Shown here: piece after piece, positions 9,887-64,000 of the stretch
Layout of the letters: each line of letters begins with the position of its first letter
How positions within the stretch are numbered: position 1 is the first letter of the stretch
The notes under the pieces: model-generated
The model's input: the letters and a program-made list of their open reading frames with translations, nothing else
Databases searched by the model: none
What the model was told of the DNA's origin: nothing
Position numbers and translations under genes: made by a program
Assembly (NCBI GenBank): GCA_965655095.1
Contig: OZ296656.1
Coordinates: forward strand, 14,322,001-14,386,000
Source of the DNA: Haplodiscus bocki
Lineage: Eukaryota
Length of the DNA stretch: 64,000 nt
Direction of reading: 5' to 3'

Positions 9887-10156
9887 ATAAGTTCGACGAA
9901 AATAAACTTTCCACAGAAATCTCAAAATTACACGCTAAGTCATTGCTCCACGAACTAAAACTTTCAGCCGCACGTTCAGTAATGATTTAATGATGTTGTC
10001 GGAAATTCAAAGCTTATCCCTCAATAATTGTTATAATACAATCCCGAACAATCAAATCAATCACAACAATAAATTTGTTGTCAACTATTGTTGGCTTCAA
10101 TTAATACTTGCACATCTATGACAACACTTGCTAACGCATAAATAAAGGTGACTAAC

Positions 10157-10984: not shown

Positions 10985-12939
10985 TTGGTAACTCGATCTG
11001 AAACAGTCAACAGCTGCTTTAAATCCCATTCTGCTCTACAGTTTTGTGTCCTTTCGTGTCAGAGCTTCACAAACGAAGCCACACCGGAGGAAAAATCGAA
11101 GAAGATTGCGCTGTAAAATCGGTTCTCAAATTCCTCAATCCTTGATAAGAAAGCAAAATCAACCAGAACAGGCACATTTTTCTTTCTACACTGAAAACAA
11201 ATACGAAGATTCGGAATCAAACCGATACAGCTGATGGCCCAAGATCCAACAACTACGCTGATTACAATCGAAGATTAAAAAAATTAAATCATAGACCAAA
11301 AAAACCAACGGGCGAAATTGGAAAATTCAATACTCGATGGTTACTTGAACTCGAGATTGCATGATTGGCAGAACAAACTCAAATTCGGAACTGAAACGAT
11401 CAGAGAACACCGTTCTGAAAAAAAACCTTGCAATCATGTCTCTACTCTACCATAGTTTGGAAACGAATAGTTGTCCACAAGATTTGTTCTGGTTCTCTTT
11501 CAAGTTCGAAGTGTAAAACAGAAATGCAAAATTGAGGCCCTTACGTGGTTGTGAAACTAGGTCTTTGAAAATGCTTGCAGACGTGAGAACATTCTGGCGG
11601 CGTGGCAGGAACCATTTCGTCAGGGGAAAAAATCAGAAGTGTAGATACTTCTCAGCGCCTTGCACCAATGCATAATTCAGTTTCAGTCAGCGGAAAAGAA
11701 ACACTGGAACTGTTAACTGCACTGCATGATGAAATGCAGCTTGATTTTAGCGGAAAATTACCGTAAAAAGATAATATTTGGGATTTCACATCAGTTGATT
11801 GACTCGGCATTTGGCCCATGGCTGAATTATGCGATACACAAGAAGTGGAAAACCTGCTAGTTTTTCGGAAACGTACATGGCGCTCGATGAAATCCTTTTT
11901 TTCCTTGACTGACTAACTGAAACAAACTGACGAAAAAGGCAGAAAAAAACAATAAAAACCTGCGAAATGTCATCAAGGCAACCAAAGAAAGAAAAGGCCA
12001 TATTTAGGCTCGGAAACAATGCGAACTGCAAGCCACACACGAATATGGAAAACAACGTTTTGAAGTACACTTTCGGCGTGAGCATACATACAGAAAATAC
12101 TCAATAGCACCAAAATGGGCGGGGATTGGGTGAGAAATCATTTGTTGACAGCCAACAGACAATTAACAGCAAGATTGTCAACTAACGGGCCAACGTTGAT
12201 GAAAACTCACACTGGAAACTTTGTCCCATGTGCTGCTGTACTTGTGCTAAAAAAGGCTCGGGAAAACCATAACGACTGAGCTAAAATTCATTGAATAAGT
12301 GACTAAAATTATCGGGTTTATCGACTTTTCACGAGGAACAACGGATAACTGCAGATTACACAAAAAAACTGATTCAAACTGTTTTCAATTCCTGCAGATG
12401 AATTGGACGCGAAACAGTGAGAATTCAACCATTTCTCCGAACAGAAAACGTCAAACTTGTAAACCTCTCGCAACAGAAAAAATAAAGGCCAAGATTTGCA
12501 ACAAGTTCTCAATACCAATCGAAGATGAATCGGGAGAAGGAAACGGCAAAGTGTCTGAAAATGTGAAGCCGGTTTCTTTCCGGGCTCTCAATATCGGGTA
12601 GAGAGCGACATACAGTTCAACGGGAGAAGTCAACGCTTGCGGAGCCAAAGACTGATTGACCAACTGAATGGCAACACATTCGTCAATATATACGGAAAAA
12701 TTCCAGTTGTCAAATCTAGAGCAACTTGTTGTTCCAACAAACAACATGCAAGTACCTGTCTCCTGATGAAAGGAACGTAGTCTACATTTATTAGAGGTCA
12801 TTTGGTGATGTATTCAGAGTAACGCTCACAGACAAGCTTTAAACTAACAGTAAATCGATTAGTAGAACGGACAGGTTGTATCACGTAACCTGTGACTGCT
12901 AATGTTCAATGTAATTTTCCATCGTAATTTGATGGAAGA

Positions 12940-13320: not shown

Positions 13321-13400
13321 GCTCCAATTCCAAAATATTTTCGCTCGGAATCGGATTTTTTAAACTTCTTTCAATTTTCCTTCGCATTTGGTACTTTTAG

Positions 13401-14106
13401 GTACACTGGCTCCGTCGAAAATGAATTAAAATTCTTCAAGTATCAAGGGCTCCCCTCTTTCCACCGGTTTTTCTACCTTTACAAGAGGGACATTCCTTGT
13501 TACAATTCGCTCTAAATCAATATAGGGGAGAAAAGAGGCTCTGGAGAATATCTGCGATACATTTTCGGAAGTTTGAGCGATCAACTGGGAAGTAATCTGG
13601 CATCAGTCTATTTTTTTGTCAATAATCAATATGACTGGATCATAGAGGAATATCAAAAAGCAACAGTAGAATGGCACTATGCACAAACTTAAAATCCTTG
13701 TGCAGGTGCTGACATTATACGAAACGCGAGAAAACAAGATTCCCGGAAGTTACAGCTTCTTCTAAACAAAAAAGGTTGTTTTTGGAAAATTCCTCTAATC
13801 GGAGCAATTTTTTCTTGCATAAGTTGTTTCCAACAATTAAGCTCAAGGTTGTTGGGCTCTGTGGGGTTTAGTGGGGATTGGGGAGTGCTGCAACCATGCA
13901 ACATGATTAAGCCATAAAACATTTATCCAACTGTCTTTGATATGGATTTAGAACTTTCTGAAAGTTCCGTCAAATTGCAATCCCAAAATCAAAAAGTTTT
14001 CCTTCCGGTACGGTTAGAAGCAAAGTATAAAGCGTGGTCTATCTAAACAGCACTCGGATCTTGGAAAAAAACTGAATTAAATGTGTCAAACTTCTTCTGC
14101 TCGTAG
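13401..14106 (+). pseudogene. Decayed protein-coding segment of unknown identity leading into the tandem array
   Basis: After a pyrimidine-rich TTTTAG| at 13400 one frame runs ~234 codons (YTGSVENELKFFKYQGLPSFHRFFYLYKRDIPC...DWIIEEYQKATVEWHYAQT...) with only 4 stops, all TAA (13513, 13690, 13915, 14044); my rough composition-based expectation is ~15. Confidence 0.5.
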
Positions 14107-17100
14107 GACAAATTGTACATGGGAATAATTAAATTGCAAGTCACTTGTATTCGGAGCGCATAGGACGGACCTTAAGCGAGGCCTGAAGATTTTAAGGGAA
14201 CCTTTGGAAGAATTACTAAGATCAACCAGTCACACTAGAGCACGATTCAAAATTTTGGAAGAAACAAGCACACAAAAAGGGATTTTTGAACAGCATCCGA
14301 ATATGTAATCAAGGAAGCAAAAGTTTACCAAGGAAAGTACCCCAGAAGATTTTTGATATGCGATTGGTTTTTTTGAGACGCAATTTGGATGAGTAAACTT
14401 TGATTTTAGTAGAGATTATTCCTTAAGACCAATTCTGCATTATTAACAAGTGAATCGCACCGTAGGTTACCGGGAAGAAGCTGTGTTTAAAGTTCAAAGT
14501 CCTCAAAAAATCTCATCTTTTGTTCTCAAATTAACCCAAGAAGTCGAAATACTTCGGAACCTTCTTGCCTCAAATGTCAATCATCCGAATTTACGACAGT
14601 TATTTCAAAAAACAAAATGAGCAATACATAAGTACATTCAAAAAATGCTAGACAAATTTGACACTCTGAACCTAAACTGATCATTTTCATAATTTCGTGT
14701 GAACTGCAGGTGTAGATTCTGATGACTGTCGAGCTAAATAGGATGGTTTGAAAGAAGTTCCCCTTGAATATTCACCGGAGATAACTATCGCGGGAGCTTC
14801 AATTTTCGAACAAGTATCATTTTTTGGGTCGACCGAAAAAGCAAACAAACGTACCCGGGTCTTGCTTGCTATATTTGTTAACAAAATTGGGTGAAGCGCC
14901 GAATAAAAAAGCCGAACTGCTGGATTTTTTCCCGAAAAAATCAAATTTCAAAAGATGTGACGAGTCCACATTCACTAATCTGATCTACACATTCTCTGTT
15001 GTTGTGTCTCAAACTTATGCTATAGGAAAGAATGTATCAGAGTGATTCTCTATCCAAAAAGAAAGAGAGGAAAAAAAACGACGAGTTCAGAAGAGAAAAG
15101 AACCACGTTGAAGTCATGAAAAATTCCAGGAACAAATATTTACGGAGAACAGTTACATATGTGATTCATTTGTTCAATATGCACGGTTACAATAACCCCA
15201 AACAATTAAGATTTCTTTACTGTAAGTTGAAAAAGAAAGAAATAAACAGGAATTGAAAGTGTTCTGGTACAACTTTTGGTCACCTAAGCTCCTAGATTAC
15301 CTTCAAAGAAATTCTAAGGCACCAAGATCGACTGCCTGTATCGCGTTACAATAAATCTTCAATTTTAGAAAAGGCGCTTTTTAATAATCCAAAAGATTAA
15401 CGTAAAACTGAAACTAAGCCTGAAATGTTTCGATGACAAACGAAAGCCCGGAAAATTTAAAGTTCTCAGTTTACTACTCAAAAATATTAGCACAACTTGT
15501 TTATTTGCTATTTAAGCTTCGTTTAAGAGATCCACGAGATGACAAAGGAAGTTAAATTTCCTTGTCACACAGGTCGGAAGGGACATTGCAACAACCCAGG
15601 ACAAAGACAAATTCATCTTCCGAAAATGACGAGTCTTCGGGACAAGTTTGTCGATGAAACGGAAATGGTAAAGGTAATTATTAAATGCTGGCCGTCGCTA
15701 GAGTGGAGTGATTAAATTGGTGGGAACCTCGAGTTTTTCAGTTGGAGCCGCACAATTTCAATAATAAATTTTACAACAACAAAAAAATATCTTTCGCCAT
15801 GCTTAGCGGGGTTTTTCCATTGGCTACATGACCTGCATGCACGATCACGTCACCTAGACCCGTAACCAAATGGGGCATAAACACCCAGTGCAAATCCGTA
15901 AAGTTTAGTTGATCGCTCCTGCTCACTTGCGTACTTAACCGATGTTAAACTCTTTTCCACTCAGTTCTGATTTCAATTTTTGAAAATTCTTCTCTGATTT
16001 TAGGCGAATTAAAATCACCGATTTCAAATTTACCTCACTTCAGAATTATTCTAAGACCTTTCCGAAAATTGTCTTGTCCGCAATTCAACAATACTGCTTC
16101 TGAATTAACTTAAGACTTTTCCGAAACTTGTGTTAGCCATAATTCATTTTTTAAGATAAAGTGTACATGGGAATATTTAAATTGCAAGTCACTTGTATTC
16201 GGAGTGCATAGGAAGGACATTAAGCGAGGCCTGAAGATTTTAAGGGAACCTTTGGAGGAATTATTAAGATCAACCAGTCACACTCTAGCATGAATCAAAC
16301 TTTTGGAAGAAACAAGCACACAAAAATGGATTTTTGAACAGCATCCGAATATGTAATCAATGAAGCACAAGTTTAACAAGGAAAGTTCCCCAGAAGATTT
16401 TTGATATGCGATTGGTTTTTTTGAGACGCAATTTGGATGAGTAAACTTTGATTTTAGTAGAGATTATTCCTTAAGACCAATTCTGCGTTATTAACAAGTG
16501 AATCGCACAGTAGGTTACCGGGAAGAAGCTGTGTTTAAAGTTCAAAGTCCTCAAAAAATCTCATCTTTTGTTCTCGAATTAACCCAAGATGACGAAATAC
16601 TTCGGAACCTTCTTGCCTCAAATGTCAATCATCCGAATTTACGACAGTTATTTCAAAAGACAAAATGAGCAATACATAAGTACATTCAAAAACTGCTAGA
16701 CAAATTTGACACTCTGAACCTAAACTGATCATTTTCATAATTTGGTGTGAACTGCAGGTGTAGATTCTGATGACTGTCGAGCTAAATAGGATGGTTTGAA
16801 AGAAGTTCCCCTTGAATATTCACCGGAGATAACTATCGCGGGAGCTTCAAATTTCGAACAAGTATCATCTTTTGGGTCAATCGAAAAAGCAAACAAACGT
16901 ACCCGGGTCTTGCATGCTATTTTTGTTAACAAAATTGGGTGAAGCGCCGAATAAAAAAGCCGAACTGCTGGATTTTTTCCCGAAAAAATCAGAATTTCAA
17001 AAGATGTGACGAGTCCACATTCACGAATCTGATCTACACAATCTCCGTTGTTGTGTCTCAACCTTTTGCTATAGGAAAGAAAAAAGAAAATATCAGAGTG

Positions 17101-20100
17101 ATTCTCTATCCAAAAAGAAAGAGAGGAAAGGAAGACGAGTTCAGAAGAGAAAAGATCCACGTTGAAGTTATGAAAAATTCCAGGAACAAATATTTACGGA
17201 GAACAGTTATATATGTGATTCATTTGTTCAATATGCACTGTTAAAATAACCCCAAACAATTAGGATTTCTTTACTGTAAGTTGAAAAAGAAAGAAAGAAA
17301 CAGGAAGTGAAAGTGTTCTGGTACAACTTTTGGTCACCTAATCTCCTAGATTACCTTCAAATAAATTCTAAAGCACCAAGTTCGACTGCCTGTATCGCGT
17401 TACACTAATTGCTCAATCTTAGAAAAGGCGCTTTTTATTAATCCAAAACTTAACCTAAAACTGAAACTAAGCTCGAAATGTTTCGATGACAAACGAAAGC
17501 TTCAAAAACTTAAATTTCTGTTTACTACACAAAAAGATTAGCACAACTTGTTTATTCGCTTTTTAAGCTTCGTTTAAGAAATCCACGAGATGACAAAGGA
17601 AGTTGAATTTCCTTGTCTCACAAGTTGGAAGGGACATTGCAACACCCGAGGGCAAAGACAAATTCATCTTCCAAGAATGACAAGTGATCGGGACAAATTT
17701 GTCGATGAAACGGAATTGGTAAAGGTAAATATTAAATGCTGGCCGTCGCTACAGTAGAGTGATTAAATTGATGGGAACCTCGAGTTTTTCAGTTGGAGTT
17801 GCACAATTTCACTATTAAATTTCACAACAACGAAAAATTATATTTTGCCATGCTTAGCGGGTTTTTTCCATTGGCTACATGACCTGCATGCACGATCACG
17901 TCACCTAGACTCGTAACCAAATGGGGCATAAACACCCAGTGCAAATCCGTAAAGTTTAGTTGATCGCTCCTGCTCACTTGCGTACTTAACCGATGTTAAA
18001 CTCTTTTCCTCTCAGTTCTCACTTCAATTTTTGAAAAATCTTCTCTGATTTTAGGCGAGTTAAAATCACCCATTTCAAATTTACCTCACTTCAGAATTAT
18101 TCTAAGACCTTTCCGAAAATTGTCTTGTCCGCAATTCAACAACACTGCTTCTGAATTAACTTAAGACTTTTCCGAAACTTGTGTTAGCCATAATTCATTT
18201 TTTAAGATAAAGTGTACATGGGAATATTTAAATTGCAAGTCACTTGTATTCGGAGCGCATAGGAAGGACCTTAAGCGAGGCCTGAAGATTTTAAGGGAAC
18301 CTTTGGAGGAATTACTAAGATCAACCAGTCACACTATAGCACGATTCAAAATTTTGGTAGAAACAAGCACACAAAAAGGCATTTTTGAACAGCATCCGAA
18401 TATATAAACAATGAAGCAAAAGTTTACCAAGGAAAGTTCCCCAGAAGATTTTTGATATGCGATTGGTTTTTTTGAGACGCAATATGAATGAGTAAACTTT
18501 GATTTTAGTAGAGATTATTCCTTAAGACCAATTCTGCATTATTAACAAGTGAATTGCACCGTAGGTTACCGGGAAGAAGCTGTGTTTAAAGTTCAAAGTC
18601 CTCAAAAAATCTCATCTTTTGTTCTCAAATTAACCCAATATGTCGAAATACTTCGGAACCTTCTTGCCTCAAATGTCAATCATCGGAATTTACGACAGTT
18701 ATTTCAAAAAACAAAATGAGCAATACATAAGTACATTCAAGAAATGCTAGACAAATGTGACACTCTGAACCTAAACTGATCATTTTGATAATTTGGTGTG
18801 AACTGCAGGTGTCGATTCTGATGACTGTCAAGCTCAATAGGATGGTTTGAAAGAAGTTCTCGTTGATTATTCACCGGAGATAACTATCGCGGAAGCTTCA
18901 AATTTCGAACAAGTATCACTTTTTGGGTCAATCAAAAAGCAAACAAACATTGACGGGTCTTGCATGCTATTTTTGTTAACAAAATTGGGTGAAGCACCGA
19001 ATAAAAAAGCCAAACTGCAGGATTTTTTCCCGAAAAAATCAGAATTTCAAAAGATGTGACGATTCCACATTCACTAATCTGATCTACACAATCTCCGTTG
19101 TTGTGTCTCAACCTTATACTATAGGAAAGAAAGTATCAGAGTGATTCTCTATCCAAAAAGAAAGAGAGGAAAGAAAGACGAGTTCAGAAGAGAAAAGATC
19201 CACGTTGAAGTTATGAAAAAATTCCAGGAACAAAGGTTTACGGAGAACAGTTATATATGTGATTCATTTGTTCAATATGCACGGTTACAATAACCCCAAA
19301 CAATTAAGATTTCTTTCCTGTAAGTTGAAAAAGAAAGAAATAAACAGGAAGTGAAATTGTTCTGGTACAAGTTTTGTTCACCTAAGCTCCTAGATTACCT
19401 TTAAATAAATTCTAAAGCACCAAGATCGACTGCCTGTATCGCGTTACAGTAAATGCTCAATTTTAGAAAAGGCGCTTTTTATTAATACAAAAATTAACCT
19501 AAAACTGAAACTAAGCTCGAAATGTTTCGATGACAAACGAAAGCCCGGAAAAATTAAAAAGCGCAGTTTACTACTCGAAAAGATTAGCACAACTTGTTTA
19601 TTTGCTATTTAAGCTTCATTTAAGAGATCCACGAGATGACAAAGGAAGTTGAATTTCCTTGTCTCACAAGTTGGAAGGGACATTGCAACACCCCAGGGCA
19701 AAGACAAATTCATCTTCCAAAAATGACGAGTGATCGGGACAAATTTGTCGATGAAACGGAAATGGTAAAGATATTTAATAAATGCTGGCCGTCGCTACAG
19801 TGGAGTGATTAAATTGATGGAAAGCTCGAATTTTTCAGTTGGAGTTGCACAATTTCACTATTAAAGTTTACAACAACCAAAAAAATATATTTCGCCTTGC
19901 TTGGCGGGTTTTTCCCATTGGCTACAAGACATGCATGCTCGATCATTTGACCTAAACACGTAACCAAAAGGGGCATAAATACCCAATGCGCAGCCATAAA
20001 GTTTAGTTGATCGCTCCTGCTCACTTGCGTACTTAACCGATGTTAAACTCTTTTCCTCTCAGTTCTCACTTCAATTTTTGAAAAATCTTCTCTGATTTTA

Positions 20101-23100
20101 GGCGAGTTAAAATCACCCATTTCAAATTTACCTCACTTCAGAATTATTCTAAGACCTTTCCGAAAATTGTCTTGTCCGCAATTCAACAACACTGCTTCTG
20201 AATTAACTTAAGACTTTTCCGAAACTTGTGTTAGCCATAATTCATTTTTTAAGATAAAGTGTACATGGCAATATTTAAATTGCAAGTCACTTGTATTCGG
20301 AGCGCATAGGAAGGACCTTAAGCGAGGCCTGAAGATTTTAAGGGAACCTTTGGAGGAATTACTAAGATCAACCAGTCACACTATAGCACGATTCAAAATT
20401 TTGGTAGAAACAAGCACACAAAAAGGCATTTTTGAACAGCATCCGAATATATAAACAATGAAGCAAAAGTTTACCAAGGAAAGTTCCCCAGAAGATTTTT
20501 GATATGCGATTGGTTTTTTTGAGACGCAATATGAATGAGTAAACTTTGATTTTAGTAGAGATTATTCCTTAAGACCAATTCTGCATTATTAACAAGTGAA
20601 TTGCACCGTAGGTTACCGGGAAGAAGCTGTGTTTAAAGTTCAAAGTCCTCAAAAAATCTCATCTTTTGTTCTCAAATTAACCCAATATGTCGAAATACTT
20701 CGGAACCTTCTTGCCTCAAATGTCAATCATCGGAATTTACGACAGTTATTTCAAAAAACAAAATGAGCAATACATAAGTACATTCAAGAAATGCTAGACA
20801 AATTTGACACTCTGAACCTAAACTGATCATTTTGATAATTTGGTGTGAACTGCAGGTGTCGATTCTGATGACTGTCAAGCTCAATAGGATGGTTTGAAAG
20901 AAGTTCTCGTTGATTATTCACCGGAGATAACTATCGCGGAAGCTTCAAATTTCGAACAAGTATCACTTTTTGGGTCAATCGAAAAAGCAAACAAACATTG
21001 ACGGGTCTTGCATGCTATTTTTGTTAACAAAATTGGGTGAAGCACCGAATAAAAAAGCCAAACTGCAGGATTTTTTCCCGAAAAAATCAGAATTTCAAAA
21101 GATGTGACGATTCCACATTCACTAATCTGATCTACACAATCTCCGTTGTTGTGTCTCAACCTTATACTATAGGAAAGAAAGTATCAGAGTGATTCTCTAT
21201 CCAAAAAGAAAGAGAGGAAAGAAAGACGAGTTCAGAAGAGAAAAGATCCACGTTGAAGTTATGAAAAAATTCCAGGAACAAAGGTTTACGGAGAACAGTT
21301 ATATATGTGATTCATTTGTTCAATATGCACGGTTACAATAACCCCAAACAATTAAGATTTCTTTCCTGTAAGTTGAAAAAGAAAGAAATAAACAGGAAGT
21401 GAAATTGTTCTGGTACAAGTTTTGTTCACCTAAGCTCCTAGATTACCTTTAAATAAATTCTAAAGCACCAAGATCGACTGCCTGTATCGCGTTACAGTAA
21501 ATGCTCAATTTTAGAAAAGGCGCTTTTTATTAATACAAAAATTAACCTAAAACTGAAACTAAGCTCGAAATGTTTCGATGACAAACGAAAGCCCGGAAAA
21601 ATTAAAAAGCGCAGTTTACTACTCGAAAAGATTAGCACAACTTGTTTATTTGCTATTTAAGCTTCATTTAAGAGATCCACGAGATGACAAAGGAAGTTGA
21701 ATTTCCTTGTCTCACAAGTTGGAAGGGACATTGCAACACCCCAGGGCAAAGACAAATTCATCTTCCAAAAATGACGAGTGATCGGGACAAATTTGTCGAT
21801 GAAACGGAAATGGTAAAGATATTTAATAAATGCTGGCCGTCGCTACAGTGGAGTGATTAAATTGATGGAAAGCTCGAATTTTTCAGTTGGAGTTGCACAA
21901 TTTCACTATTAAAGTTTACAACAACCAAAAAAATATATTTCGCCTTGCTTGGCGGGTTTTTCCCATTGGCTACAAGACATGCATGCTCGATCATTTGACC
22001 TAAACACGTAACCAAAAGGGGCATAAATACCCAATGCGCAGCCATAAAGTTTAGTTGATCGCTCCTGCTCACTTGCGTACTTAACCGATGTTTAACTCTC
22101 TTCCACTCAGTTCTCACTTCAATTTTTGAATTTTCTTCTCTGTTTTTAGGCGAGTTAAAATTACCCATTTCAAATTTACCTCACTTCAGAATTATTCTAA
22201 GACCTTTCCGAAAATTGTCTTGTCCGCAATTCAACAATACTGCTTCTGAATTAACTTAAGACTTTTCCGAAACTTGTCTTAGCCATAATTCAACCTGGTA
22301 AGACGAAGTGTACATGGGAATACTTAAATTTCAATTCACTTGTATTCGGAGCGCATAGGAAGGACCTTAAGCGGGGCCTGAAGATTTTAAGGGAACCTTT
22401 GGTGGATTTACTAAGATCAACCAGTCACACTATAGCACGATTCAAAATTTTGGAAGAAACAAGCACTTAAAAATGGATTTTTGAACAGCATCCCAATATG
22501 TAATCATTGAAGCAAAAGTTTACCAAGGAAAGTTCCTCAGACGATTTTTGTTATGCGATTGGTTTTTTTGAGACGCAATTTGGATTAGTTGACTTTGATT
22601 GTAGTTGAGATTATTCCTTAAAACCAATTCTGTAATACTAACAAGTGAATAGCACCGTAGGTTACCGGGAGGAAGCTAGGTTTAAAGTTCAACGTCCTCA
22701 AAAAACCTCATCTTTTGTGCTCATAAAAACCCAAGATGTCGAAATACTTCAGAACCTTCTTGCCTCACCTGTCAATCATCGGAATTTACGACAGTTATTT
22801 CAAAAAACAAAATGAGCAATACATAAGTACGTTAAAAAAATGCTAGACAATTTTGACACTCTGAACCTAAACTGATCATTTTCATAATTTGGTGTGAACT
22901 GCAGGTGTAAATTCTGATGACTGTCGCGCTAAATAGGATGGTTTGAAAGAAGTTCTCCTTGAATATTAACCGGATATAATTATCGCGGGAGCTTCAAATT
23001 TTGAACAAGTATCATTTTTTGGGTCAATCGAAAAAGCAAACAAATGTACCCGCGTCTTGCATGATATTTTTGTTAACAAAATTGGGTGAAGCACCGAATA

Positions 23101-46794: not shown

Positions 46795-46823
46795 GAATTA
46801 TTCTAAGACTTTTCCGAAACTTG
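46795..46823 (+). repeat. 59-bp deletion junction in unit 16
   Basis: Other units have two GAATTATYYTAAGACYTTTCCGAAAYTTG motifs 59 bp apart; here they are fused into one hybrid and the unit is 1997 bp. Confidence 0.9.
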
Positions 46824-47537
46824 TCTCAGCCATAATTCATTTTTTAAGATAAAGTGTACATGGGAATATTTAAATTGCAAGTCACTTGTGTTCGGAGCGC
46901 ATAGGAAGGACCTTAAGCGAGGCCTGAAGATTTTAAGGGAACCTTTTGAGGATTTAATAAGATCAACTACTCACACTATAGCACGATTCAAAATTTTGGA
47001 AGAAACAAGCACTTAAAAATGGATTTTTGAACAGCATCCGAATATGTAATCATTGAAGCAAAAGTTTACCAAGGAAAGTTCCTCAGACGATTTTTGATAT
47101 GCGATTGGTTTTTTTGAGACGCAATTGGGACTGGTTGACTTTGATTTTAGTAGAGATTATTCCTTAAAACCAATTCTGTAATATTAACAAGTGAATAGCA
47201 CTGTAGGTTACCGGGAGGAAGCTAGGTATAAAGTTCAACGTCCTCAAAAAACCTCATATTTTGTGCTCAAAATAACCCAAGATATCGAAATACTTCAGAA
47301 CCTTCTTGCCTCACCTGTCAAGCAGCCGAATTTACGACAGTTATTTCACCTAAATGAGCAGTACATAGGTACTTTAAAAATATGCTAGACAATTTTGACA
47401 GTCTGAACCTAAACTGATCATTTTCATATTTTGGTGTGAACTGCAGTTGTCAATTCTGACGACTGTCAAGCTGAATAGGATGGTTTGAAAGATGTTCTCC
47501 TTGTTTATTCACCGGAGATAACTATCGCGGAAGCTTC

Positions 47538-48186
47538 AAGTTTTTAACTTGTATATTTTTTTGGGTCAATCGAAAAAGCAATCAAACATGCCCGGGACTT
47601 GCATGCTGTTTTTGTTAACAAAATTGGGTGAAGCACCGAATAAAAAAGCCGAACTGCAGGATTTTTTTCCGAAAAAATCAGACTTTCAAAAGATGTGACG
47701 AGACCACATTCACTAATCTGATCTTCACAATCTCCATTGTTGTGTCTCAACATTATGCTATAGGAAAGAAAGTAATAGAGGATTCTTTTTCCAAAAAAAG
47801 AAAGGAAAGAAAGACGAGTTCGGGAGAGAAAAGACCGACGTTGAAACTTTTATGAAAAGTTTTCAACATGTATCATTTTTTTTGGTTCAAACGAAAAAGC
47901 AATGAAACATGCCCGGGACTTGCATGCTATTTTTGTTGACAAAAAAGGGTGAAGCACTGAATAAAAAAAACCTAACTGCAAGAATTTTTCCCGAAAAAAT
48001 CAGACTTTCAAAAAACGTGACGAGTCCACGTTCACTAATCTGATCTTCACAATCTCGATGTTGTCGTGTCTCAACCTTATGTTTTAGGAAAGAAAATATC
48101 AGAGTGATTCTCTATCCAAAAAGAAAGAGAGGAAAGAAAGACGAGTTCAGAAGAGAAAAGATCGACGTTGAACTTATAATGAAAAA
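47538..48186 (+). repeat. ~320-bp internal tandem duplication in unit 17
   Basis: The segment from AAGTTTTTAAC to ATGAAAA occurs twice (restart at ~47857); unit length is 2370 bp. Confidence 0.92.
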
Positions 48187-51100
48187 TTCCAGGAACAAAT
48201 TTTTACGGAGAACAGTTATATATGTGATTCATTTGTTCAATAAGCACGGTTACAATAACCCCAAATAATTAAGATTTCTTTACTGGAAGTTCAAAAAAAA
48301 ATAAATAGGAAGTGAAAGTGTTCGGGTACAAGTTTTGGTCACCTAAGCTCCTAGTTTACCTTCAAAGAAATTCTAAAGCACCAAGATCGACTGCCTGTAT
48401 CGCGTTACAGTAAATGTTCAATTTTAGAAAAGGCGCTTTTTAATAATCCAAAAGATTAACGTAAAACTGAAACTAAGCCTGAAATGTTTCGATGACAAAC
48501 GAAAGCCCGGAAAATTTAAAAATCTCAGTTTACTACTCAAAAAGATTAGCACAACTTGTTTATTTGCTATTTAAGCTTCGTTTAAAGATCCACGAGATGA
48601 CAAAGGAAGTTAAATTTCCTTGTCACACAGGTTGGAAGGGACATTGCAACAACCCAGGACAAAGACAAATTCATCTTCCGAAAATGACGAGTCATCGGGA
48701 CAAAATTGTCGATGAAACGGAAATGGTAAAGGTAATTATTAAATGCTGGCCGTCACTACAGTGGCGTGATTGAATTGATGGAAAGCTCGGGCTTTTCAGT
48801 TGGAGTTGCACAACTTCACTATTAAAATTTACAACAACAAAAAAAAATAATTCGCCTTGCTTAGCGGGGTATTTCCATTGGCTACATGACCTGCATGCAC
48901 GATCACGTCACCTAGACCCGTAACCAAATGGGGCATAAACACCCAGTGCAAATCCGTAAAGTTTAGTTGATCGCTCCTGCTCACTTGCCGACTTAACCGA
49001 CGTTAAACTCTCTTCCACTCAGTTATCACTTCAATTTTTGAAATTTCTTCTCTTCTCTCTTTTTAGGCGAGTTAAAACCACTTATTTCAAATTTACCTCT
49101 TTTCAGAATTATTCTAAGACCTTTCCGAAATTTGTTTTGGCCGCAAATTAACAATACTGCTTCTGAATTATCTTAAGACTTTTCCGAAACTTGTCTTAGC
49201 CATTATTCTTTTTTTAAGATAAAGTGTACATGGGAATATTTAAATTGCAAGTCACTTGTATTCGGAGCACATAGGAAGGACCTTAAGCGAGGCCTTAAGA
49301 TTTTAAGGGAACCTTTTTTAGGATTTAATAAGATCAACCAATCACACTATAGCACGATTCAAAAATTTGGAAGACACAAGCACTTAAAAATGGATTTTTG
49401 AACAGCATCCGAATATGTAATCATTGAAGCAAAAGTTTACCAAGGAAAGTTCCTCAGATTTTTGATATGCGATTGGTTTTTTTGAGACGCAATTGGGATT
49501 AGTTGACTTTGATTTTAGTAGAGATTATTCCTTAAAACCAATTCTGTAATATTAACAAGTGAGTAGCACCGTAGGTTACCGGGAGGAAGCTAGGTTTGAA
49601 GTTCAACGTCCTCAAAAAACCTCGTCTTTTGTGCTCAAAATAACCCAAGATGTCGAAATACTTCAAAACCTTCTTGCCTCACCTGTCAAGCATCCGAAAT
49701 TACGACAGTTATTTCAAACACCAAAATGAGCAATACATAAGTACCTTAAAAAAATGCTGGACAATTTTGACAGTCTGAACCTAAAATGATCATTTTCATA
49801 TTTTGGTGTGAACTGCAGTTGTCAATTCTGATGACTGTCAAGCTGAATAGGATGGATTGAAAGAAGTTCTCCTTGATTATTCACCGGAGATAACTATCGC
49901 GGAAGCTTCAAATTTCGAACAAGTATCAGTTTTTTGGGTCAATAGAAAAAGCAAACAAACATGCCCGAGTCCTGCATGCTATTTTTGTTAACAAAATTGG
50001 GTGAAGCACCGAATAAAAAAGCCGAACTTCAGGATTTTTTTCCGAAAAAATCAGACTTTCAAAAGATGCGACGAGTCCGCATTCACTAATCTGATCTTCA
50101 CAATCTCCATTGTTGTGTCTCAACATTATGCTATAGGAAAGAAAGTATCAGAGTGATTCTCTATCCAAAAAGAAAGAGAGGAAAGAAAGACGAGTTCAGA
50201 AGAGAAAAGATCGACGTTGAACTTATAATATGAAAAATTCCAGGAACAAATTTTTACGGAGAACAGTTATATATGTGATTCATTTGTTCAATAAGCACGG
50301 TTACAATAACCCCAAATAATTAAGATTTCTTTACTGGAAGTTGAAAAAGAAAAAAATAAATAGGAAGTGAAAGTGTTCGGGTACAAATTTTGGTCACCTA
50401 AGCTCCTAGTTTACCTTCAAAGAAATTCTAAAGCACCAAGATCGACTGCCTGTATCGCGTTACAGTAAATGTTCAATTTTAGAAAAGGCGCTTTTTAATA
50501 ATCCAAAAGATTAACGTAAAACTGAAACTAAGCCTGAAATGTTTCGATGACAAACGAAAGCCCGGAAAATTTAAAATTCTCAGTTTACTACTCAAAAAGA
50601 TTAGCACAACTTGTTTACTGGCTATTTAGGTTTCGTTTAAGAGATCCACGAGATGACAAAGGAAGTTAAATTTCCTTGTCACACAGGTTGGAAGGGACAT
50701 TGCAACAACCCAGGACAAAGACAAATTCATCTTCCGAAAATGACGAGTCATCGGGACAAAATTGTCGATGAAACGGAAATGGTAAAGGTAATTATTAAAT
50801 GCTGGCCGTCACTACAGTGGCGTGATTGAATTGATGGAAAGCTCGGGCTTTTCAGTTGGAGTTGCACAACTTCACTATTAAAATTTACAACAACAAAAAA
50901 AAAATAATTCGCCTTTCTTAGCGGGGTATTTCCATTGGCTACATGACCTGCATGCACGATCACGTCACCTAGACCCGTAACCAAATGGGGCATAAACACC
51001 CAGTGCAAATCCGTAAAGTTTAGTTGATCGCTCCTGCTCACTTGCCGACTTAACCGACGTTAAACTCTCTTCCACTCAGTTATCACTTCAATTTTTGAAA

Positions 51101-54100: not shown

Positions 54101-57100
54101 GTTAACAAAATTGTGTGAAGCACCGACTAAAAAGGCCGAACTGCAGGATTTTTTTCCGAAAAAGTCAGACTTTCAAAAGATGTGACGAGTCCACATTCAC
54201 TAATCTGATCTTCAGAGCTTCGATATTGTCGTGTCTCAACCTTATGCTATAGGAAAGAAAGTATCAGAGTGATTCTTTATCCAAAGAAGGGAAGGAAAGA
54301 AAGACCAGTTCAGAAGAGGAAAGATTCACGTTGACGTTATAATGAAAAACTTCCACGAACAAATTTTTACGGAAAGCAGCTATATATGTAATTCATTTGT
54401 TCAACAAGCACGGTTACAATAACCCCAATTTTTTAAGATTTCTTTACTGGAAGTTGAAAAGGAAAAAATAAACAGGAAGTGAAAGTGTTTTGGTACAACT
54501 TTTGGTCACCTACGCTACTAGTTTACCTTCAAAGAACTTCTAAAGCACCAAGATCGACTGCCTTTATCGCGTTACAGTAAAAACTTAATCGTAGAAAAGG
54601 CGCTTTTTAGTAGTCCAAAAGATTAACGTAAAACTGAAACTAAGCTTGAAATTTTTCGATGACAAACGAAAGCCTTGAAAATTTAAACTTATCAGTTTAC
54701 TGCTCAAAACGAATAGCACAACTTGTTTATTTGCTATTTAGGCTTCGTTCAAGAGATCCACGAGATGACAAAGGAAGTTGAATTTCCTTGTCACACAGGT
54801 TGGAAGGAACATTGCAACAACCCAGGACAAAGATAAATTCATCTTCCAAAAATGACGAGCGATCGGGACAAAAATGTCGATGAAACGGAAATAGTAAAGG
54901 TAATTATTAAATGCTGCCCGTCACTATAGTGGCGTGATTGAATTGATGGAAAGCTCGGGTTCTTCAGTTGGAGTTGCAAAATTTCAATAATAAATTTTAC
55001 AACAACAAAAAAAGATAACTCGCCTTGCTTAGTGGGTTCTTCCTATTGGCTACATGACCTGCATGCTCGATCACGTCACCTAGACCCGTAACCAAATGGG
55101 GCATAAATACCCAGTGCAGAGCCAAAAAATTTAGTTGATCGCTCCCGCTCACTTGCCTACTTGACCGATGTTAAACTCTCCTCCAGTCAGTTATCACTTC
55201 AATTTTTGAAATTTCTTCTCTCTCTTTTTAGGCGAGTTAAAATCACTTATTTCAAATTTACCTCTTCTCAAAGTTATTCTAAGACATTTCCGAAATTTGT
55301 TTTGGCCGCAATTTAACAATACTGCTTCTGAATTATCTTAAGACTTTTCCGAAACTTGTCTTAGCAATAATGAACCTCGAAAGATAAAGTGTACATGGGA
55401 ATACTTATATTTCAAGTCACTTTTATTCGGAGCTCATAGGAAGGACTTTAAGCGAGGCCTGAAGATTTTAAGGGAACCTTTTGAGGAATTATTAAGATCA
55501 ACCAATCACACTGTAGCACGATTCAAAATTTTGGATGAAACAGGCAAAAAGAAATGGATTTTTGAACAACATCCGAAGATTTAATCATTGAAGCAAAAGT
55601 TTAGCAAGTAGAGTTCATCAGAAGATTTTTGATGTGAGATTGCTTTTTCTGAGATGGAATTTGGATGAGTGGACTATGATTTTAGTAGAGATTATTCCTT
55701 AAGATCAATTCTGCATTATTACCAAGTGAATCGCACCGTGGGTTACCGGGACGAAGCTATGTTTAAGGTTCAAAGTCCTCAAAAAGCCTCATCTTTTGTT
55801 CTCAAATTAACCCAAGATGTCGAAAGACTTCAGAACCTTCTTGTCTCACCTGTCAATCATCCGAAATTACGACAGTTATTTCAAACAACAAAATGAGCAA
55901 AACATAAGTACATTCAAAAAAGGCCAGACAATTTTGACACACTGAGCCTAAAGTGATCATATTCATAGTTCGATGTGAACTGCAGGTGTCAGTACTGATG
56001 ACTATCAATTTAAATAGAATGGTTTGAAGGAAGTTTTCCTTGTTTTTTCACCGGAGATAACTATCGCGGAAGCTTCAAATTTTTAACATGTATCATTTTT
56101 GTGGGTCAAACGAAAAAGCAAACAAACATTCCCGGGAGCTGCATGCTTTTTTTGTTAACAAAATTGGGTGAAGCTCCGAATAAAAAATACCCAAATGCAG
56201 GATATTTTCCCGAAAAAATCAGACTTTCAAAAGTTGTGACGAGTCCACGCTCAGTAATATGATCTTCACAATCTCAGTGTTGTCGTGTCTCAAACTTATG
56301 CTAAAGAAAAGAAAGTATCAGAGTGATTCTTTATCCAAGAAAAACAAAGGAAAGAAAGACGAGTTCAGAAGAGAAAAGATCCACGTTGACCTTATATTGA
56401 GAGAATTCCACGAAGGAATAAATACGGAAAACAGTTAAATATGTAATTCATTTGTTCAACAAGAACGGTTACAATAAACCCCAAAGAAATAGGAATTCTT
56501 TACTGGAAGTTAAAAAAAAGATATAAATAAGAAGTGAAAGTGTTCTGGTATGAATTTTGGTCCCCTAAGCTCCCAGATAACCTTCAAAAAATTTCTAAAG
56601 CACCAAGATCGACTGCCTGTATCGCCTTACAGTAAATGCTCAATTTTAGAAAAGGCGCATTTTAATAATCCAAAATTAACGCAAAAAACTGAAACTATGC
56701 TTGAAATGTTTCGATGACAAACGAAAGCCTCGAAAACTTAAAATTCTCAGTTTACTACTCAAAAAGATTAGCACAACTTGTTTACTGGCTATTTAGGTTT
56801 CGTTTAAGAGATCCACGAGATGACAAAGGAAGTTGAAGTTCCTTGTCACACAGGTTGGAAGGGACATTGCAACAACCCAGGGCAAAGACAACTTCATCTT
56901 CCAAAAAAGACGAGCGATCGGGACAAAATTGTCGATGAAGCGGAAATAGTAAAGGTAATTATTAAATGCTGCCCGTCACTACAGTGGCGTGATTGAATTG
57001 ACGGAAAGCTCGAGTTTTTCAGTTAGAGTTGCACAATTTCACTATTAAATTTTACAACAACAAAAAATTATAATTCGCCTGGCTTAGTGGGGTTTTCCCA

Positions 57101-60100
57101 TTGGCTACATGACCTACATGCACGATTACGTTACCTAGACCCGTAACCAAATGGGGCGAAAATACCCAGTGCAAAGCCATGAAGTTTAGTTGATCGCTCC
57201 TGCTCACTTACCTATTTAACCGATGTTATACTCTCCTCCACTCAGTTATCATTTCAGTTTTTGAAATTTCTTCTCTTCTCTCTTTTTAGGTGAGTTAAAA
57301 TCACTTTTTTCAAATATACATCTTTTCGGAATTGTTCCAAGATTTTTCCGAAATTTGACTTGGCCGCAATTTAACAAAATTGTTTCTGAATTATCTTCAG
57401 AGGTTTCCGAAACTTGTATTAGCTATAAATCAATCTGGTAAGACAAAGTAACATGGGAAAATTTATATTTCATGTAACTTGTGTTCCGAGCGCATAGGAA
57501 GGACCTTAAGCGAGGCTTGAAGATTTTAAGGGAAACTTTGGAGGATTTACTAAGATCAACTAGTCACACTAGAGCACAATTCAAAATTTTGGAAGAAACA
57601 AGCAAAAAGAAATGGATTTTTGAACAGCATCCGAAGATGTAATCATTGAAGCAAAAGTTTGCCAAGGAGAGTTCATCAGAAGATTTTTGATGTGCGATTG
57701 CTTTCTCTGAGATGCAATTTGGATGAGTGGACTTTGATTTTAGTAGAGATTATTCCTTAAGATCAATTCTGCATTTTTAGCAAGTGAATCGCACCGTAGG
57801 TTACCGGGACGAAGCTATGTTTAAGGTTCAAAGTCCTCAAAAAACCTCATCTTTTGTTCTCAAATTAACCCAAGATGTCGAAAGACTTCAGAACCTTCTT
57901 GTCTCACCTGTCAATTATCCGAAATTACGACAGTTTTTTCAAACAACAAAATGAGCAAAACATAAGTACATTCAAAAAGGGCTAGGCAATTTTGACACAC
58001 TGAGCCTAAAGTGACCATTTTCATAATTTGATATGAACTTGCAGGTGTCAGTACTGATGACTGTCAAGCTAAATAGAATGGTTTGAAGGAAGTTCTCCTT
58101 GATTTTTCAACGGAGAAAACTATCGCGGAAGCTTCAAATTTTTGACATTTATCATTTTTGTGGGTCAATCGAAAAAGCAAACAAACATGCCCGGGACTTG
58201 CATGCTTTTTTTGTTAACAAATTTGGGTGAAGCTCCGAATAAAAAATACCCAACTGCAGGTTTTTTTCCCAAAATAATCAGATTTTCAAAAGTTGTGACG
58301 AGTCCACGTTCAGTAATATGATCTTCACTTTCTCGGTGTTGTCGTGTCTCAAACTTGTGCTAAAGGAAAGAAAGTATCAGAGTGATTCTTTATCGAAGAA
58401 AAAGAAAGGAAAGAAAGACGAGTTCAGAAGAGAAAAGATCCATGTTGACCTTATATTGAGAAACTTCCACGAACGAATATTTACGGAAAACAGTTAAAAA
58501 TGTAATTCATTTGTTCAACAAGAACGGTTACAATAAACCCCAAAGAAATAGGATTTCTTTACTGGAAGTTGAAAAAAAAAGATATAAATAAGAAGTGAAA
58601 GTGTTCTGGTATGAATTTTGGTCACCTAAGCTCCCAGAATACCTTCAAAAAACTTCTAAAGCACCAAGATCGACTGCCTGTATCGCCTAACAGTAAATGC
58701 TCAATTTTAGAAAAGGCGCATTTTATTAATCCAAAAATAACGTGAAACTGAAACTAAGCTTGAAATGTTTCGATGACAAACGAAAGCCTCGAAAACTTAA
58801 AAGTCTCAGTTTACTACTCAAAAAGATTAGCACAACTTGTTTATTTGCTATTGAAGCTTCCTTTAAGAGATCCACGAGATGACAAAGGGAGTTGAATTTC
58901 CTTGTCACACAGGTTGGAAGGGACATTGCAACAACCCAGGGCAAAGACAAATTCATCTTCCAAAAATAACGACCGATCGGGACAAAAATGTCGATGAAAC
59001 GGAAATAGTAAAGGTAATTATTAAATGCTGCCTGTCACTACAGTGGCGTGATTGAATTGATGGAAAGCTGGGGTTTTTCAGTTGGTGTTACACAATTTCA
59101 CTACTAAATTTTACAACAACAGAAAAATATAATTCGCCTGGCATAGTGGGAATTCCCATTGGCTACATGACCTGCATGCACGATTACGTCACCTAGACCC
59201 GTAACCAAAGGGGGCGAAAATACCCGGTGCAAAGCCATGCAGTTTAGTTGATCGCTCCTGCTCACTTGCCTATTTAACCGATGTTATACTCTCCTCCATT
59301 CAAACATCATTTCAATTTTTGAAAGTTCTTCTCTTCTCTCTTTTTAGGCGAGTTAAAATCACTTATTTCAAATTTACATATTTTCAGAAATGTTCCAAGA
59401 ACTTTCCGATATTTGACCTGGCCGCAATTTAACAAAACTGTTTCTGATTTATCTTGAGAGGTTTCCGAAACTTGTCTTAGCCATAAATCAATCTGGTAAG
59501 ACAAAGTAACATGGGACAATTTATATTTCAAATCACTTGTATTCGGAGCTCATAGGAAGGACCTTAAGCGAGGCCTGAAGTTTTTAAGGGAACCTTTGGA
59601 GGATTTACTAAGATCAACTAGTCACACTATAGCACGATTCAAAATATTGGATGAAAGAAGCAAAAAGAAATGGATTTTTGAACAGCATCCGAAGATGTAA
59701 TCATTGAAGCAAAAGTTTACTAAGTAGAGTTCATCAGAAGATTTTTGATGTGCGATTGCTTTTTCTGAGATGCAATTTGGGTGAGTGGAATTTGATTTTA
59801 GTAGAGATTCTTCCTTAAGATCAATTCTGCATTTTTAACAAGTGAATCGCACCGTAGGTTACCGGGACGAAGCTATGTTTAAGGTTCAAAGTCCTTTAAA
59901 AAACCTCATCTTTTGTTCTCAAGTTAACCCAAGATGTCCAAAGACTTCAGAACCTTCTTGTCTCACCTGCCAATCATCCGAAATTACGACAGTTATTTCA
60001 AACAAAAAAATGAGCAAAACATAAGTACATTCAAAAAAGGCTAGATAATTTTGACACACTGAGCCTAAAGTCGTCATTTTCATAATTTGATGTGAACTTC

Positions 60101-63100
60101 AGGTGTCAGTACTGATGACTGTCAAGCTAAATAGAATGGTTTGAAGGAAGTTCTCCTTGATTTTCACCGGAGATAACTATCGCGGAAGCTTCAAATTTTT
60201 AACATGTATCATTTTTGTGGGTCAATCGAAAAGGCAAACAAACATGCCCGGGACTTGCATGCTTTTTGTTAAACAAGATTGGGTGAAGCTCCGAATAAAA
60301 AATACACAACTGCAGGATTTTTCCCCGAGAAAATCAGACCTCCAAAAGTTGTGACCAGTCCACGTTCAGTAATATGATCTTCACAATCTCGGTGTTGTCG
60401 TGTCTCAAACTTACGCTAGAGGAAAGGAAGTATCAGAGTGATTCTTTATCCAAGAAAAAGAAAGGAAAGAAAGACGAGTTCAGAAGAGAAAAGATCCACG
60501 TTGACCTTATATTGAGAAAATTCCACGAACGAATAAATACGGAAAACAGTTGAATATGTAATTCATTTGTTCAACAAGAACGGTTACAATAAACCCCGAA
60601 GAAATAGGATTTCTTTACTGCAAGTAAAAAAAGATATAAATAAGAAGTGAAAGTGTTCTGGTATGAACTTTGGTCACCTAAGCTCCCAGATAACCTTCAA
60701 AAAATTTCTAAAGCACCAAGATCGACTGCCTGTATCGCCTTACAGTAAATGCTCAATTTTAGAAAAGGCGCATTTTATTAATCCAAAAATAACGTAAAAC
60801 TGAAACTAAGCTTGAAATGTTTCGATGACAAACGATAGCCTCGAAAACTTAAAATTCTCAGTTTACTACTCAAAAAGATTAGCACAACTTGTTTACTGGC
60901 TATTTAGGTTTCCTTTAAGAGATCCACGAGATGACAAAGGAAGTTGAAGTTCCTTGTCACACAGGTTGGAAGGGACATTGCAACAACCCAGGGCAAAGAC
61001 AACTTCATCTTCCAAAAACGACGAGTGATCGGGACAAAATTGTCGATGAAACGGAAATGGTAAAGGTAATTAATAAATGCTGGCCGTCGCTACAGTGGCG
61101 TGATTGAATTGATGGAAAGCTCTAGTTTTTCAGTTGGAGTTGCAAAATTTCGCTATTGAATTTTACAACAACAAAAAAATATAATTCCCCTTTCTCAGCG
61201 CGGTCTTCCCATTGGCTACATGACCTGCATGCACGATTACGTCACCTAGACCAGTAACCAAATGGGGCGAAAATACCCATTGCAAAGCCATGAAGTTTAG
61301 TTGATCGCTCCTGCTCACTTGCCTATTTAACCGAGGTTATACTCTCCTCCACTCAAATATCATTTCAATTTTTGAAATTTCTTCTCTTCTGTCTTTTTAG
61401 GCGAGTCAAAATCACTTATTTCAAATTTACATCTTTTCAGAAATGTTCCAAGAACTTTCCGAAGTTTGACTTGGCCGCAATTTAACAAAACTGTTTCTGA
61501 ATTATCTTGAGAGGTTTCCGAAACTTGTCTTAGCCATAAATCAATCTTGTAAGACAAAGTAACATGGGAAATTTTTTATTTCAAGTCATTTGTGTTCCGA
61601 GGGCATAGGAAGGACCTTAAACGAGGCTTGAAGATTTTAAGGGAAACTCTGGTGGATTTACTAAGATCAACCAGTCACACTATGGCACGATTGAAAATTT
61701 TGGAAAAAACAAGCACAAAAGAAATGGATTTTTGAACAGCATCCGAAGATGATATCATTGAAATCAGTTTACCAAGGAGAGTTCATCGGAAGATTTCTGA
61801 TATGCGATTGGTTTTTCTGAGATGCAATTTGGATGAGTGGACTTTGATTTTAGAAGAGATTATTCCTTGAGACCATTTCCGCATTAACACCAAGTGAATC
61901 GCACCGTAGGTTACCGGGAAGAAGCTGTGTTTAAAGTTCAAAGTCCTCAAAAAACCTCATCTTTTATTCTCAATTTAACCCAAGATGTCGAAGTACTTCA
62001 GAAGTTTCTTGTCTCACCTGTCAATCATCCGAAATTACGACAGTTATTTCAAACAACAAATTGAGCAATGAAAAAGTACATTCAAAAAAGGCTAGACAAT
62101 TTTGACACTCTGAGACTATACTCATCAATTTCATAATTTGAAGTGAATTGCAGGTGTCAGTACTGATGACTATCAAGTTAAATAGAATGGTTTGAAAGAA
62201 GTTCTCCTTGATTTTTCACCGGAGAGAGATAACTATCGCGGAAGCTTCAAATTTTGAACATGTCTCATTTTTTTGGGTCAATCGAAAAAGCAAACAAACA
62301 TGCCCGGGACTTGCATGCTATTTTTGATAACAAAATTGGGTGAAGCAGCGAATAAAAAAAGCCCAACTCCAGGATTTTTTCCCAAAAATATCAGACTTTC
62401 AAAAGATGTGACGAGTCCAAGTTCACTAATCTGATCTTCACAATCTCGATGTTGTCATGTGTCAACCTTATGCTATAGGAAAGAAAGTATCAGAGTGATT
62501 CTTTATCCAAAAAAAGAAAGGAAAAAAAGACGAGTTCAGAAGAGAAAAGACCCAGGTTGAACTTATTATGAAAAAATTCCACGAACGAATATTTACGGAA
62601 AACAGTTATTTATGTGGTTTTTTGTTCAATAAGCACGGTTACAATCAACCCCAGACAATTAAAATTTCTTCACTGCAAGTTAAAAAGGAAAGAAATAAAT
62701 AGGAAGTGAAAGTGTTCTGGTTAAAATTTTGGTCACCTAAACTCCTAGATTACCTTCAAATAATTTCTAAAGCACCAAGATGGACTGCCATTATCGCCTT
62801 ACAGTCAATGCTTAATTTTAGAAAAGGCGCATTTCATTAATCCAAAAAAATGTAAAACTGAAACTAAGCTTGAAATAATTAGATGACAAACGAAAGCCTC
62901 GAAATTTTAAAGTTCTCAGTTTACTACTCAAAAATACTAGCACAACTTATTTATTTGCTATATAAGCTTCGCTTAAGAGACCCACGAGATGACAAAGGAA
63001 GTTGATTTTCCTTGTCACACAGGTTGGAAGGGACATTGCAACAACCCAGGGCAGAGACAAATTCATCTTCCAAAAATGACGAGCGATCAGGACAAAAATT

Positions 63101-64000
63101 GTCGATGAAACGGAAAAAGTAAAAGCAATTATTAAATGCTGGCCGTCACTACAGTGGAGTGATTAAATTGATGGAAAACTCGAGTTTTTCAGTTGGAGTT
63201 GCACAAGTCACTATTAAACTTTACAACAACAAAAAATATAAATCGCCTAGCTTAGCGAGGTTTTCCCATTGGCTACATAACCTGCATGCACGATCACGTC
63301 ACCTAGACCCGTAACCAAATGGGGAATAAATACCCAGTGCAAAGCCATAGACTTCATTTGATCGCTCCTGCTCACATGCCTACTCAACCGATGTTAAACT
63401 CTCCTCCACTCCGTCATCACTTCAACTTTTGAAATTTTTCCTCTTTTCTCTATTTAGGCAAGTAAAAATCACTTATTTCAAATTTACCTATTTTCAGAAT
63501 TATTTTAAGACCTTCCGAAATTTGTCTCGGCCGCAATATAACAATACTGCTTCTGAATTATCTTAGGACTTTTCCGAATCTTGTCTTCACCATAATTCAA
63601 AATGGTAAGACAAAGTGTACATGGGAAAATTTAAATTTCAAGTCGCTTGTTTTCGGAGCACATAGGAAGGACCTTAAGCGAGGCCTCAAGATTTTAAGGG
63701 AACCTTTGGAGGATTTACTATGATCAACCAGTCACACTATAGCACGATTCAAAAATTTGGAAGAAACAAGAACAAAAAAATGGATTTTTGAACAGCATCC
63801 GAAGATGTAATCATTGAAGCAAAAGTTTACGGAGGAGAGTTCATCACAAGATTTTTGATAAGCGATTGGTTTTTCTGAGATGCAATTTGGATGAGTGGAC
63901 TTCGATTTTAGCAGAGAATATTCCCTAAGACCAATTCGCATTATTATCAAATGAATCGCACCGTAGGTCACCGGGAGGAAGCTATGTTTAAAGTTCAAAG

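Follow-up and report, generated by a model that had tools for sequence, protein, structure and literature searches.

Tandem arrays derived from the long terminal repeats (LTRs) of retroelements are known in plants and in some animals. Here we describe an array of this kind that begins at position 14100 of a 64,000-nucleotide stretch of the Haplodiscus bocki genome, and the closest known case is the potato satellite Sobo. Sobo of Solanum bulbocastanum has a 4.7-kb unit, covers ~360 kb at one locus and is similar to a Gypsy LTR, to satellite DNA and to genomic DNA (PMC3648361, PMC9659126). The maize arrays CRM1TR and CRM4TR consist of LTR and untranslated region (UTR), were begun by illegitimate recombination and are locally homogenised, and CRM4TR includes the U3 TATA region (PMC3648361). 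Animal cases are RPCS of Ctenomys, a rodent satellite with a U3-like origin and a 348-bp unit (PMC3648361), and MALREP of Monopterus albus, a fish satellite derived from an LTR (PMC9659126).

The window, meaning the whole 64,000-nucleotide stretch (G000:C9:14,322,001-14,386,000, in a genome of 1.5 Gb), holds an array that likely belongs to this known class of LTR-derived, non-coding satellites. With Sobo-like arrays it shares kilobase-size head-to-tail units, recognisable LTR sequence and the lack of any intact coding capacity. As in Sobo, a multi-kilobase unit at a single locus combines a Gypsy LTR with other genomic DNA. The array differs from Sobo in that it lies in what appears, from an HDGF/LEDGF-like gene in the window, to be an animal genome, in that its units are up to 14% apart and form local subfamilies, and in that both original flanks, a complete LTR and the target duplication survive, so that the starting duplication can be read directly. 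CRM1TR and CRM4TR are also tandem arrays of part of a Gypsy LTR, but they join the LTR to the element's own UTR and are centromeric, whereas here the partner is the host-side flank, the parent is a solo LTR and the array lies next to a gene. RPCS and MALREP are likewise animal satellites made from LTR sequence; compared with the 348-bp unit of RPCS, the present unit is 2 kb long, low in copy number, confined to a single locus and includes flanking DNA. We consider it very probable that the unit is composed of 1.24 kb of flank and the front 0.8 kb of a solo LTR from an envelope (env)-bearing Gypsy-type element, that it was duplicated in place and brought to 41 copies by unequal exchange and conversion, and that it likely has no protein product. 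As a satellite it is ordinary. Its value lies in a legible start (left flank, single junction, complete LTR, target duplication), which makes it a clean test case for the passage from a 2-kb duplication to an 85-kb array.

The array is a real 41-copy tandem repeat of 2 kb at a single locus. Self-comparison of the window revealed a head-to-tail repeat from position 14100 with a period near 2050, and eight neighbouring stretches carried it beyond the window to 41 units and ~84.5 kb (G000:C9:14,336,100-14,420,620). This bears out a preliminary description of the window, made from the sequence alone, which had called a 2.05-kb macrosatellite starting at 14100. Unit lengths were tight, with 22 of the 24 complete units in the window at 2045-2059 bp, unit 16 at 1997 bp and unit 17 at 2370 bp, and identity between window units was 86-99%. 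An Rfam scan of 11000-20300 gave no match and a tRNA scan of the window found no tRNA, in agreement with the earlier statement that the unit does not resemble rRNA, tRNA or snRNA. Read depth over the units was far above that of the flank in two runs of one study; this is contig depth, which may come from the assembled sample itself, and was not used as a copy number. The array and the parts of its first unit are as follows.

14100..64000, + strand: tandem array, units 1-24 and part of unit 25 (self-comparison)
13363..14103, + strand: single-copy DNA continuous with X and outside the array; a + frame with 3 stops in 215 codons, not significant after scan correction; no homologue
14104..15338, + strand: segment X of unit 1, ~1.24 kb, the left flank of the LTR; no homologue, coding signal not significant
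15335..15338, + strand: left copy of the 4-base target-site duplication; the same 4 bases stand in 33 of 41 units and again after the final complete LTR
15339..16038, + strand: 5' part of the LTR (probably U3 and the start of R), ~70% identical to dispersed copies; holds the second long frame of the preliminary description, from 15527
15819..15882, + strand: decayed LTR promoter core with CCAAT-like, E-box-like and TATA-like motifs
16039..16146, + strand: two copies of the LTR-internal 59-61-bp minisatellite, with the duplication breakpoint inside
16140..16155, + strand: unit junction, where the LTR minisatellite meets the start of X with a 2-base overlap
46845..49214, + strand: unit 17, in which ~324 bp are duplicated internally, as they are again in unit 33 beyond the window

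The unit proved to be a chimera of flank and LTR, a composition that the preliminary description had overlooked. In genome searches, dispersed copies ~70% identical to unit positions 1242-2046 were found on 12 large and several small contigs (38 of 985 candidates scored). Unit positions 1-1229 (X) gave 42 matches, all at the array locus (40 of 85 candidates scored), and the 800 bases left of the array returned their own locus only. X is unique over ~2.3 kb, with dispersed repeats on either side. The unit consists of ~1.24 kb of this locus-specific DNA followed by the front 0.8 kb of an LTR that is 3 kb long when complete; the LTR share is ~40%. The final unit of the array continues into the rest of a complete LTR, directly past the far end of which the 4 bases that precede the LTR in the units recur. 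From this duplication and this continuation we infer that the LTR inserted into X and that the combination of X and the first 0.8 kb was then multiplied between intact ends. A solo LTR of Ty3/Gypsy type is marked by a short terminal inverted motif and by a target duplication of 4-6 bases around a single LTR. The left LTR terminus in the array subfamily is TA, not TG. In all units the LTR minisatellite is joined to X at one and the same point. The earlier idea of a virus-derived satellite holds loosely, since about two-fifths of the unit is the front of an LTR from an env-bearing retroelement; the reading as an amplified gene fragment is not supported.

Twelve 10-kb loci around the best dispersed matches were read to characterise the parent repeat. 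The dispersed element is ~3 kb long with sharp ends and an internal 59-61-bp minisatellite, and exact matches to its first 25 bases occur at at least 180 sites in the genome. An exact 4-base target duplication was present in 7 of the 11 copies or elements read at both ends; two others had 3 of 4 bases, and two had none. A search for the pattern of element end plus TGG gave seven matches (control, two), five of which had one primer-site-like sequence after the 5' LTR. At four of these loci (30 kb each) paired direct repeats were found, two of the pairs being 98% alike. The paired copies around gag-pol, the primer-like site and the target duplications identify the dispersed repeat as an LTR. A Helitron/Helentron or a miniature inverted-repeat transposable element was ruled out by the primer site, the paired LTRs, the gag-pol genes and the 4-base duplications; Helitrons are not known to duplicate their target. 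At one locus (L043), two LTR copies 3.4 kb from each other proved to be separate insertions.

The frames of two young elements matched gag, reverse transcriptase (RT), RNase H, integrase, a Monjiviricetes fusion glycoprotein and MATH above the Pfam cut-offs. Integrase_p58_C was also matched, and matches to protease, macro and Tf2-like SH3 domains were below the cut-offs. The LTRs of these young elements align poorly with the 3-kb LTR type. An element on C1 has LTRs of the 3-kb type, 92.6% alike, enclosing gag, protease, RT, integrase, env and MATH frames that are 34-73% identical to those of the young relatives, and its LTR is 67-71% identical to the last LTR of the array over longer pieces. 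The order protease-RT-RNase H-integrase and matches to the integrase C-terminus are marks of Ty3/Gypsy, and the domain order, the Integrase_p58_C match and the sub-cut-off Tf2-like SH3 match point to a parent of Ty3/Gypsy type. Eight element proteins compared with the window gave no match.

Elements of this Gypsy type, 16-18 kb long, were seen at G000:C6:16.34-16.36 Mb, C7:36.54-36.56 Mb and C1:41.95-41.98 Mb, with the LTR pairs on C6 and C7 being the two that are 98% alike. Besides gag, protease, RT, RNase H and integrase they have a weak macro match, a fusion glycoprotein of Monjiviricetes type (E 2e-33) and a MATH gene of TRAF type (E 2e-14), and every copy seen of the env/MATH-bearing elements has stops or frameshifts. 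Paired LTRs, a primer-site-like sequence, 4-base target duplications, the order gag-protease-RT-RNase H-integrase and an envelope-type gene are shared with the env-bearing, errantivirus-like Ty3/Gypsy elements. The env of insect errantiviruses is of the baculovirus F type, whereas the envelope here scores as a Monjiviricetes-type fusion glycoprotein and is accompanied by the TRAF-type MATH gene and the weak macro-domain match. Literature searches showed no title that pairs this type of envelope with a MATH gene in a Gypsy element, which is weak evidence that the combination is absent from print. The parent element, with its rhabdo/mononegavirus-type envelope and TRAF-type domain, may merit a study of its own and is of more interest than the satellite.

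The history we propose would begin with insertion of the LTR into X with a 4-base target duplication, a step that can be read in the sequence. Recombination between LTRs would then have removed the interior of the element, so that only a solo LTR remained. Next, the 59-bp minisatellite may have suffered a break or template switch and been joined to a point 1.24 kb upstream, with 2 shared bases; the junction itself is present in the units, and its 2-base overlap fits end-joining or template switching alike. Local duplications of one to three units, together with patchy conversion, would have built the array over a long time and may still be occurring, as the pattern of divergence suggests. The presumed outcome is passive satellite DNA with decayed LTR promoter motifs. 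The LTR is ~30% different from other copies within the amplified part and beyond it alike, which makes it likely that the LTR inserted before the array formed.

Divergence among the units averages 11.2% (range 0.05-14.2%) and rises with distance, from 7.5% between neighbours to at least 12% at 16 units (rho 0.56, the pairs not being independent). Subfamilies are local, although some units have distant nearest relatives (unit 10 with unit 39), and near-identical pairs lie two units apart (4/6, 25/27 and 29/31, each with at most 0.4% difference). The dependence on distance, the local subfamilies and the near-identical pairs are what unequal exchange with conversion into recent times would produce. 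The same data bear on a single burst, in which rolling-circle copying of a DNA circle would have re-entered at the same locus. One junction common to all units would fit such a burst, as would the short deepest branches of the unit tree and the many distant pairs at 12-13%, but the distance-dependent divergence, the local subfamilies and the near-identical pairs mean that most of the present structure comes from later exchange, and we regard a burst as unlikely. The duplication shared by units 17 and 33 hinted at a 16-unit higher-order repeat, which was not seen in the distance table.

The four parts of the unit diverge alike, by 10-12%. TATAAA is present in 2 of 41 units compared with 8 of 14 dispersed LTRs, and CACGTG in none of the 41 compared with all 14; a CCAAT-like motif is kept in 31 of 41 units. 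The labels CCAAT-like, E-box-like and TATA-like are assignments that we presume. The loss of the TATA-like and E-box-like motifs would argue against working promoters in the units. These observations also bear on the idea of a functional array, which would be kept either as a source of small RNA or of silencing directed at the retroelement family, or as a chromatin element with an effect on the HDGF/LEDGF-like gene that lies 3 kb away. An LTR promoter region in 41 same-strand copies, the tight unit length and the retained CCAAT-like motif would suit such a role, which we nevertheless consider quite improbable: two of the three motifs are gone, no part of the unit is less diverged than the others, and an LTR part ~30% different from other family members would probably make a poor small-RNA guide. 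A centromeric satellite is less probable still, to the point of being very hard to credit. Centromeric repeats of LTR origin have been described in both potato and maize (PMC3648361), but the array is a single 84.5-kb locus in the 1.5-Gb genome with a mean divergence of 11%, and the search with X described above gave no match on other chromosomes. The small array, the single locus, this divergence and the host gene 3 kb away together make a centromeric role unlikely.

The preliminary description had seen in the unit what looks like an amplified fossil gene fragment, citing two long frames, of which the first is the following.

57292..58011, + strand: frame of 240 codons, of which the first 49 are LTR of unit 21 and the remainder X of unit 22

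This frame has the 7 stops that were reported, and the three sense codons quoted as examples from other units were found in place. It crosses a unit junction, however, a feature that had also been overlooked, and the second long frame lies in the LTR; the two frames stand in pieces of different origin. The statement that no unit is intact was correct, with at least 4 stops in the frame in each of the 41 units. Four of the stops had been singled out as sense codons elsewhere; in fact each of the 7 is replaced by a sense codon in one or more of the 24 units in the window, which is not distinctive, as the same is true of 43 of the 60 stops counted in the five remaining frames. At 4 of these 7 positions, 36 or more of the 41 units have a stop. 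In the window's part of the array the longest run of codons without a stop is 152, and a 240-codon window with at most 7 stops occurred in 85% of 1000 shuffles of one unit.

Variation among the copies was examined by codon position. Across 41 units, X beyond unit positions 1-573 had no significant third-position bias (p=0.89), and the ratio of non-synonymous to synonymous polymorphism (pN/pS) in the 240-codon frame was 0.78, compared with 0.77-1.02 in other frames. Only 1 of 16 indels among the units was a multiple of three. The second long frame does exist, but it sits in the LTR promoter region and shows no significant bias, either in the array (72/68/80 alleles by codon position, p=0.60) or in 14 dispersed LTRs (118/112/103, with 0-7 stops, p=0.60). 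The codon-position test has some power, since it detects an antisense frame in the 3' half of the LTR (185/184/234, p=0.017, pN/pS 0.46, 8 copies). This frame (L043:685-1205, - strand, and other copies) lies outside the repeat unit and had no Pfam match. A frameshift-tolerant score of openness found X inside units no easier to cross than shuffles (P 0.61-0.92); it detected a gag remnant (P 0.007-0.05) and did not detect two LTR-tail controls (P 0.09-0.22). On a codon-usage score, neither the unit nor the positive controls rose above the 95% null. An atlas score of 0.75 for the U3 frame that is open in unit 9 is below the level often reached by shuffles.

Homology searches gave the same picture. 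The two frames, read with X at stops, had no match in Pfam or PHROGs (best E 0.28). Neither frame had a homologue in its own genome beyond the array locus, or in a word-based search of the longer proteins of a 5.8-billion set, and the in-unit frame was without match in viral contigs. The sole HMMER match of the upstream frame among 1.84 billion proteins was to a repetitive beta-propeller (27.7 bits over 48 residues, E 2.2e-4) and was set aside as inflated by repeats. Taken singly, then, the copies are no more open than shuffled sequence and have no significant codon bias, these searches gave no homologue, and the fossil-gene interpretation was not sustained for the unit as amplified. The composition of the unit suggests moreover that the LTR had split X before amplification, so that the units would never have held an intact gene.

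A milder form of the idea derives X from an old protein-coding gene, whether of the host, of a transposon or of an RNA-virus insert, that was dead or was killed by the LTR before amplification; the array would then carry the fossil as a passenger. This is compatible with the same LTR-edge history and differs only in the former nature of X. Its attractions are the + frames with the fewest stops in 13363-14007 and in unit positions 1-573, a weak third-position trend in the latter, and the ~2.3 kb of unique sequence between dispersed repeats. Given the empty searches and the lone beta-propeller match, together with the shuffle comparison and the indel lengths reported above, we rate such a past for X as rather improbable.

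The account of X as non-coding flank beside a solo LTR has several observations to contend with. The frame of the preliminary description has the fewest majority stops of the six (6, compared with 10-17), and within X 1-573 its alleles fall 152/127/166 by codon position across the 41 units, a coding-like trend (p=0.07). The DNA at 13363-14103, on the same strand, is nominally open, at P 0.007-0.037 with hand-picked ends and 0.52 after scan correction. Units of the array contain a median of 1 stop over 110 codons of the second frame, and among the dispersed LTRs the pN/pS of this frame, 0.72, is the lowest of six (others 0.80-0.90). The openness and codon-score tests are weak on old fossils, as the non-significant LTR-tail controls illustrate. 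On the side of the retroelement, the LTR of the array is only ~70% like other copies and belongs to its own subfamily, for which no interior was found; a single pattern search for the priming tRNA gave no matches; and a 2-base overlap at a junction often arises by chance. All of these weigh against the preferred history of flank and solo LTR without changing our preference for it.

Duplications across an LTR edge were also observed at four other loci, which, like the parent element, are of more interest than the satellite itself.

C7:79.77 Mb (L037): dimer of 640 bp of flank, U3 and minisatellite
C4:24.21 Mb (L044): dimer across the right end of an LTR
C4:51.83 Mb (L095): trimer of a 733-bp unit of upstream DNA and U3
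C1:41.96 Mb (L097-L098): dimer of a 3' LTR with 550 bp upstream

Two of these are among the 12 best-hit loci and two are the clusters that were selected, because their LTRs lie close together, among the first 100 LTR starts listed, so the number is not a rate and has no control, and the front end of the LTR as a duplication hot spot is a lead only. The 59-61-bp minisatellite of the LTR also expands alone, to 104 copies, to 64 copies and to more than 20 kb (L035, L045 and L037-L089). Tentatively, and with the odds in our judgement against it, the LTR family could be a recurrent seed of macrosatellites, its front end and minisatellite triggering duplications that carry neighbouring DNA along, and the parent could be a Gypsy lineage not yet described, whose envelope is of mononegavirus type and which has captured a TRAF-type MATH gene. 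In that event one genome would hold a graded series of stepwise macrosatellite birth, from dimers on C7, C4 and C1 through the trimer on C4 to the 41-mer on C9; an enrichment of edge duplications at the LTR family would likewise offer a series from 2 to 41 copies.

The window also contains a host gene to the left of the array.

3815..11035, - strand: host gene with PWWP and LEDGF domains (HDGF/LEDGF-like), its start ~3 kb from the array
7167-7871: RT fragment between two long frames of the HDGF/LEDGF-like gene

LEDGF is a cofactor of retroviral integrase in mammals, and the position of an HDGF/LEDGF-like gene beside the array is probably a coincidence. Broken frames at L008:1-593 resemble a Polinton-type DNA polymerase B. 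To the right of the array (C9:14.43-14.47 Mb), retroelement pieces recognised by eye include frames resembling the MATH-bearing 3' end and the envelope of the same superfamily as the parent element, as well as a Copia-like set of gag, integrase and RT.

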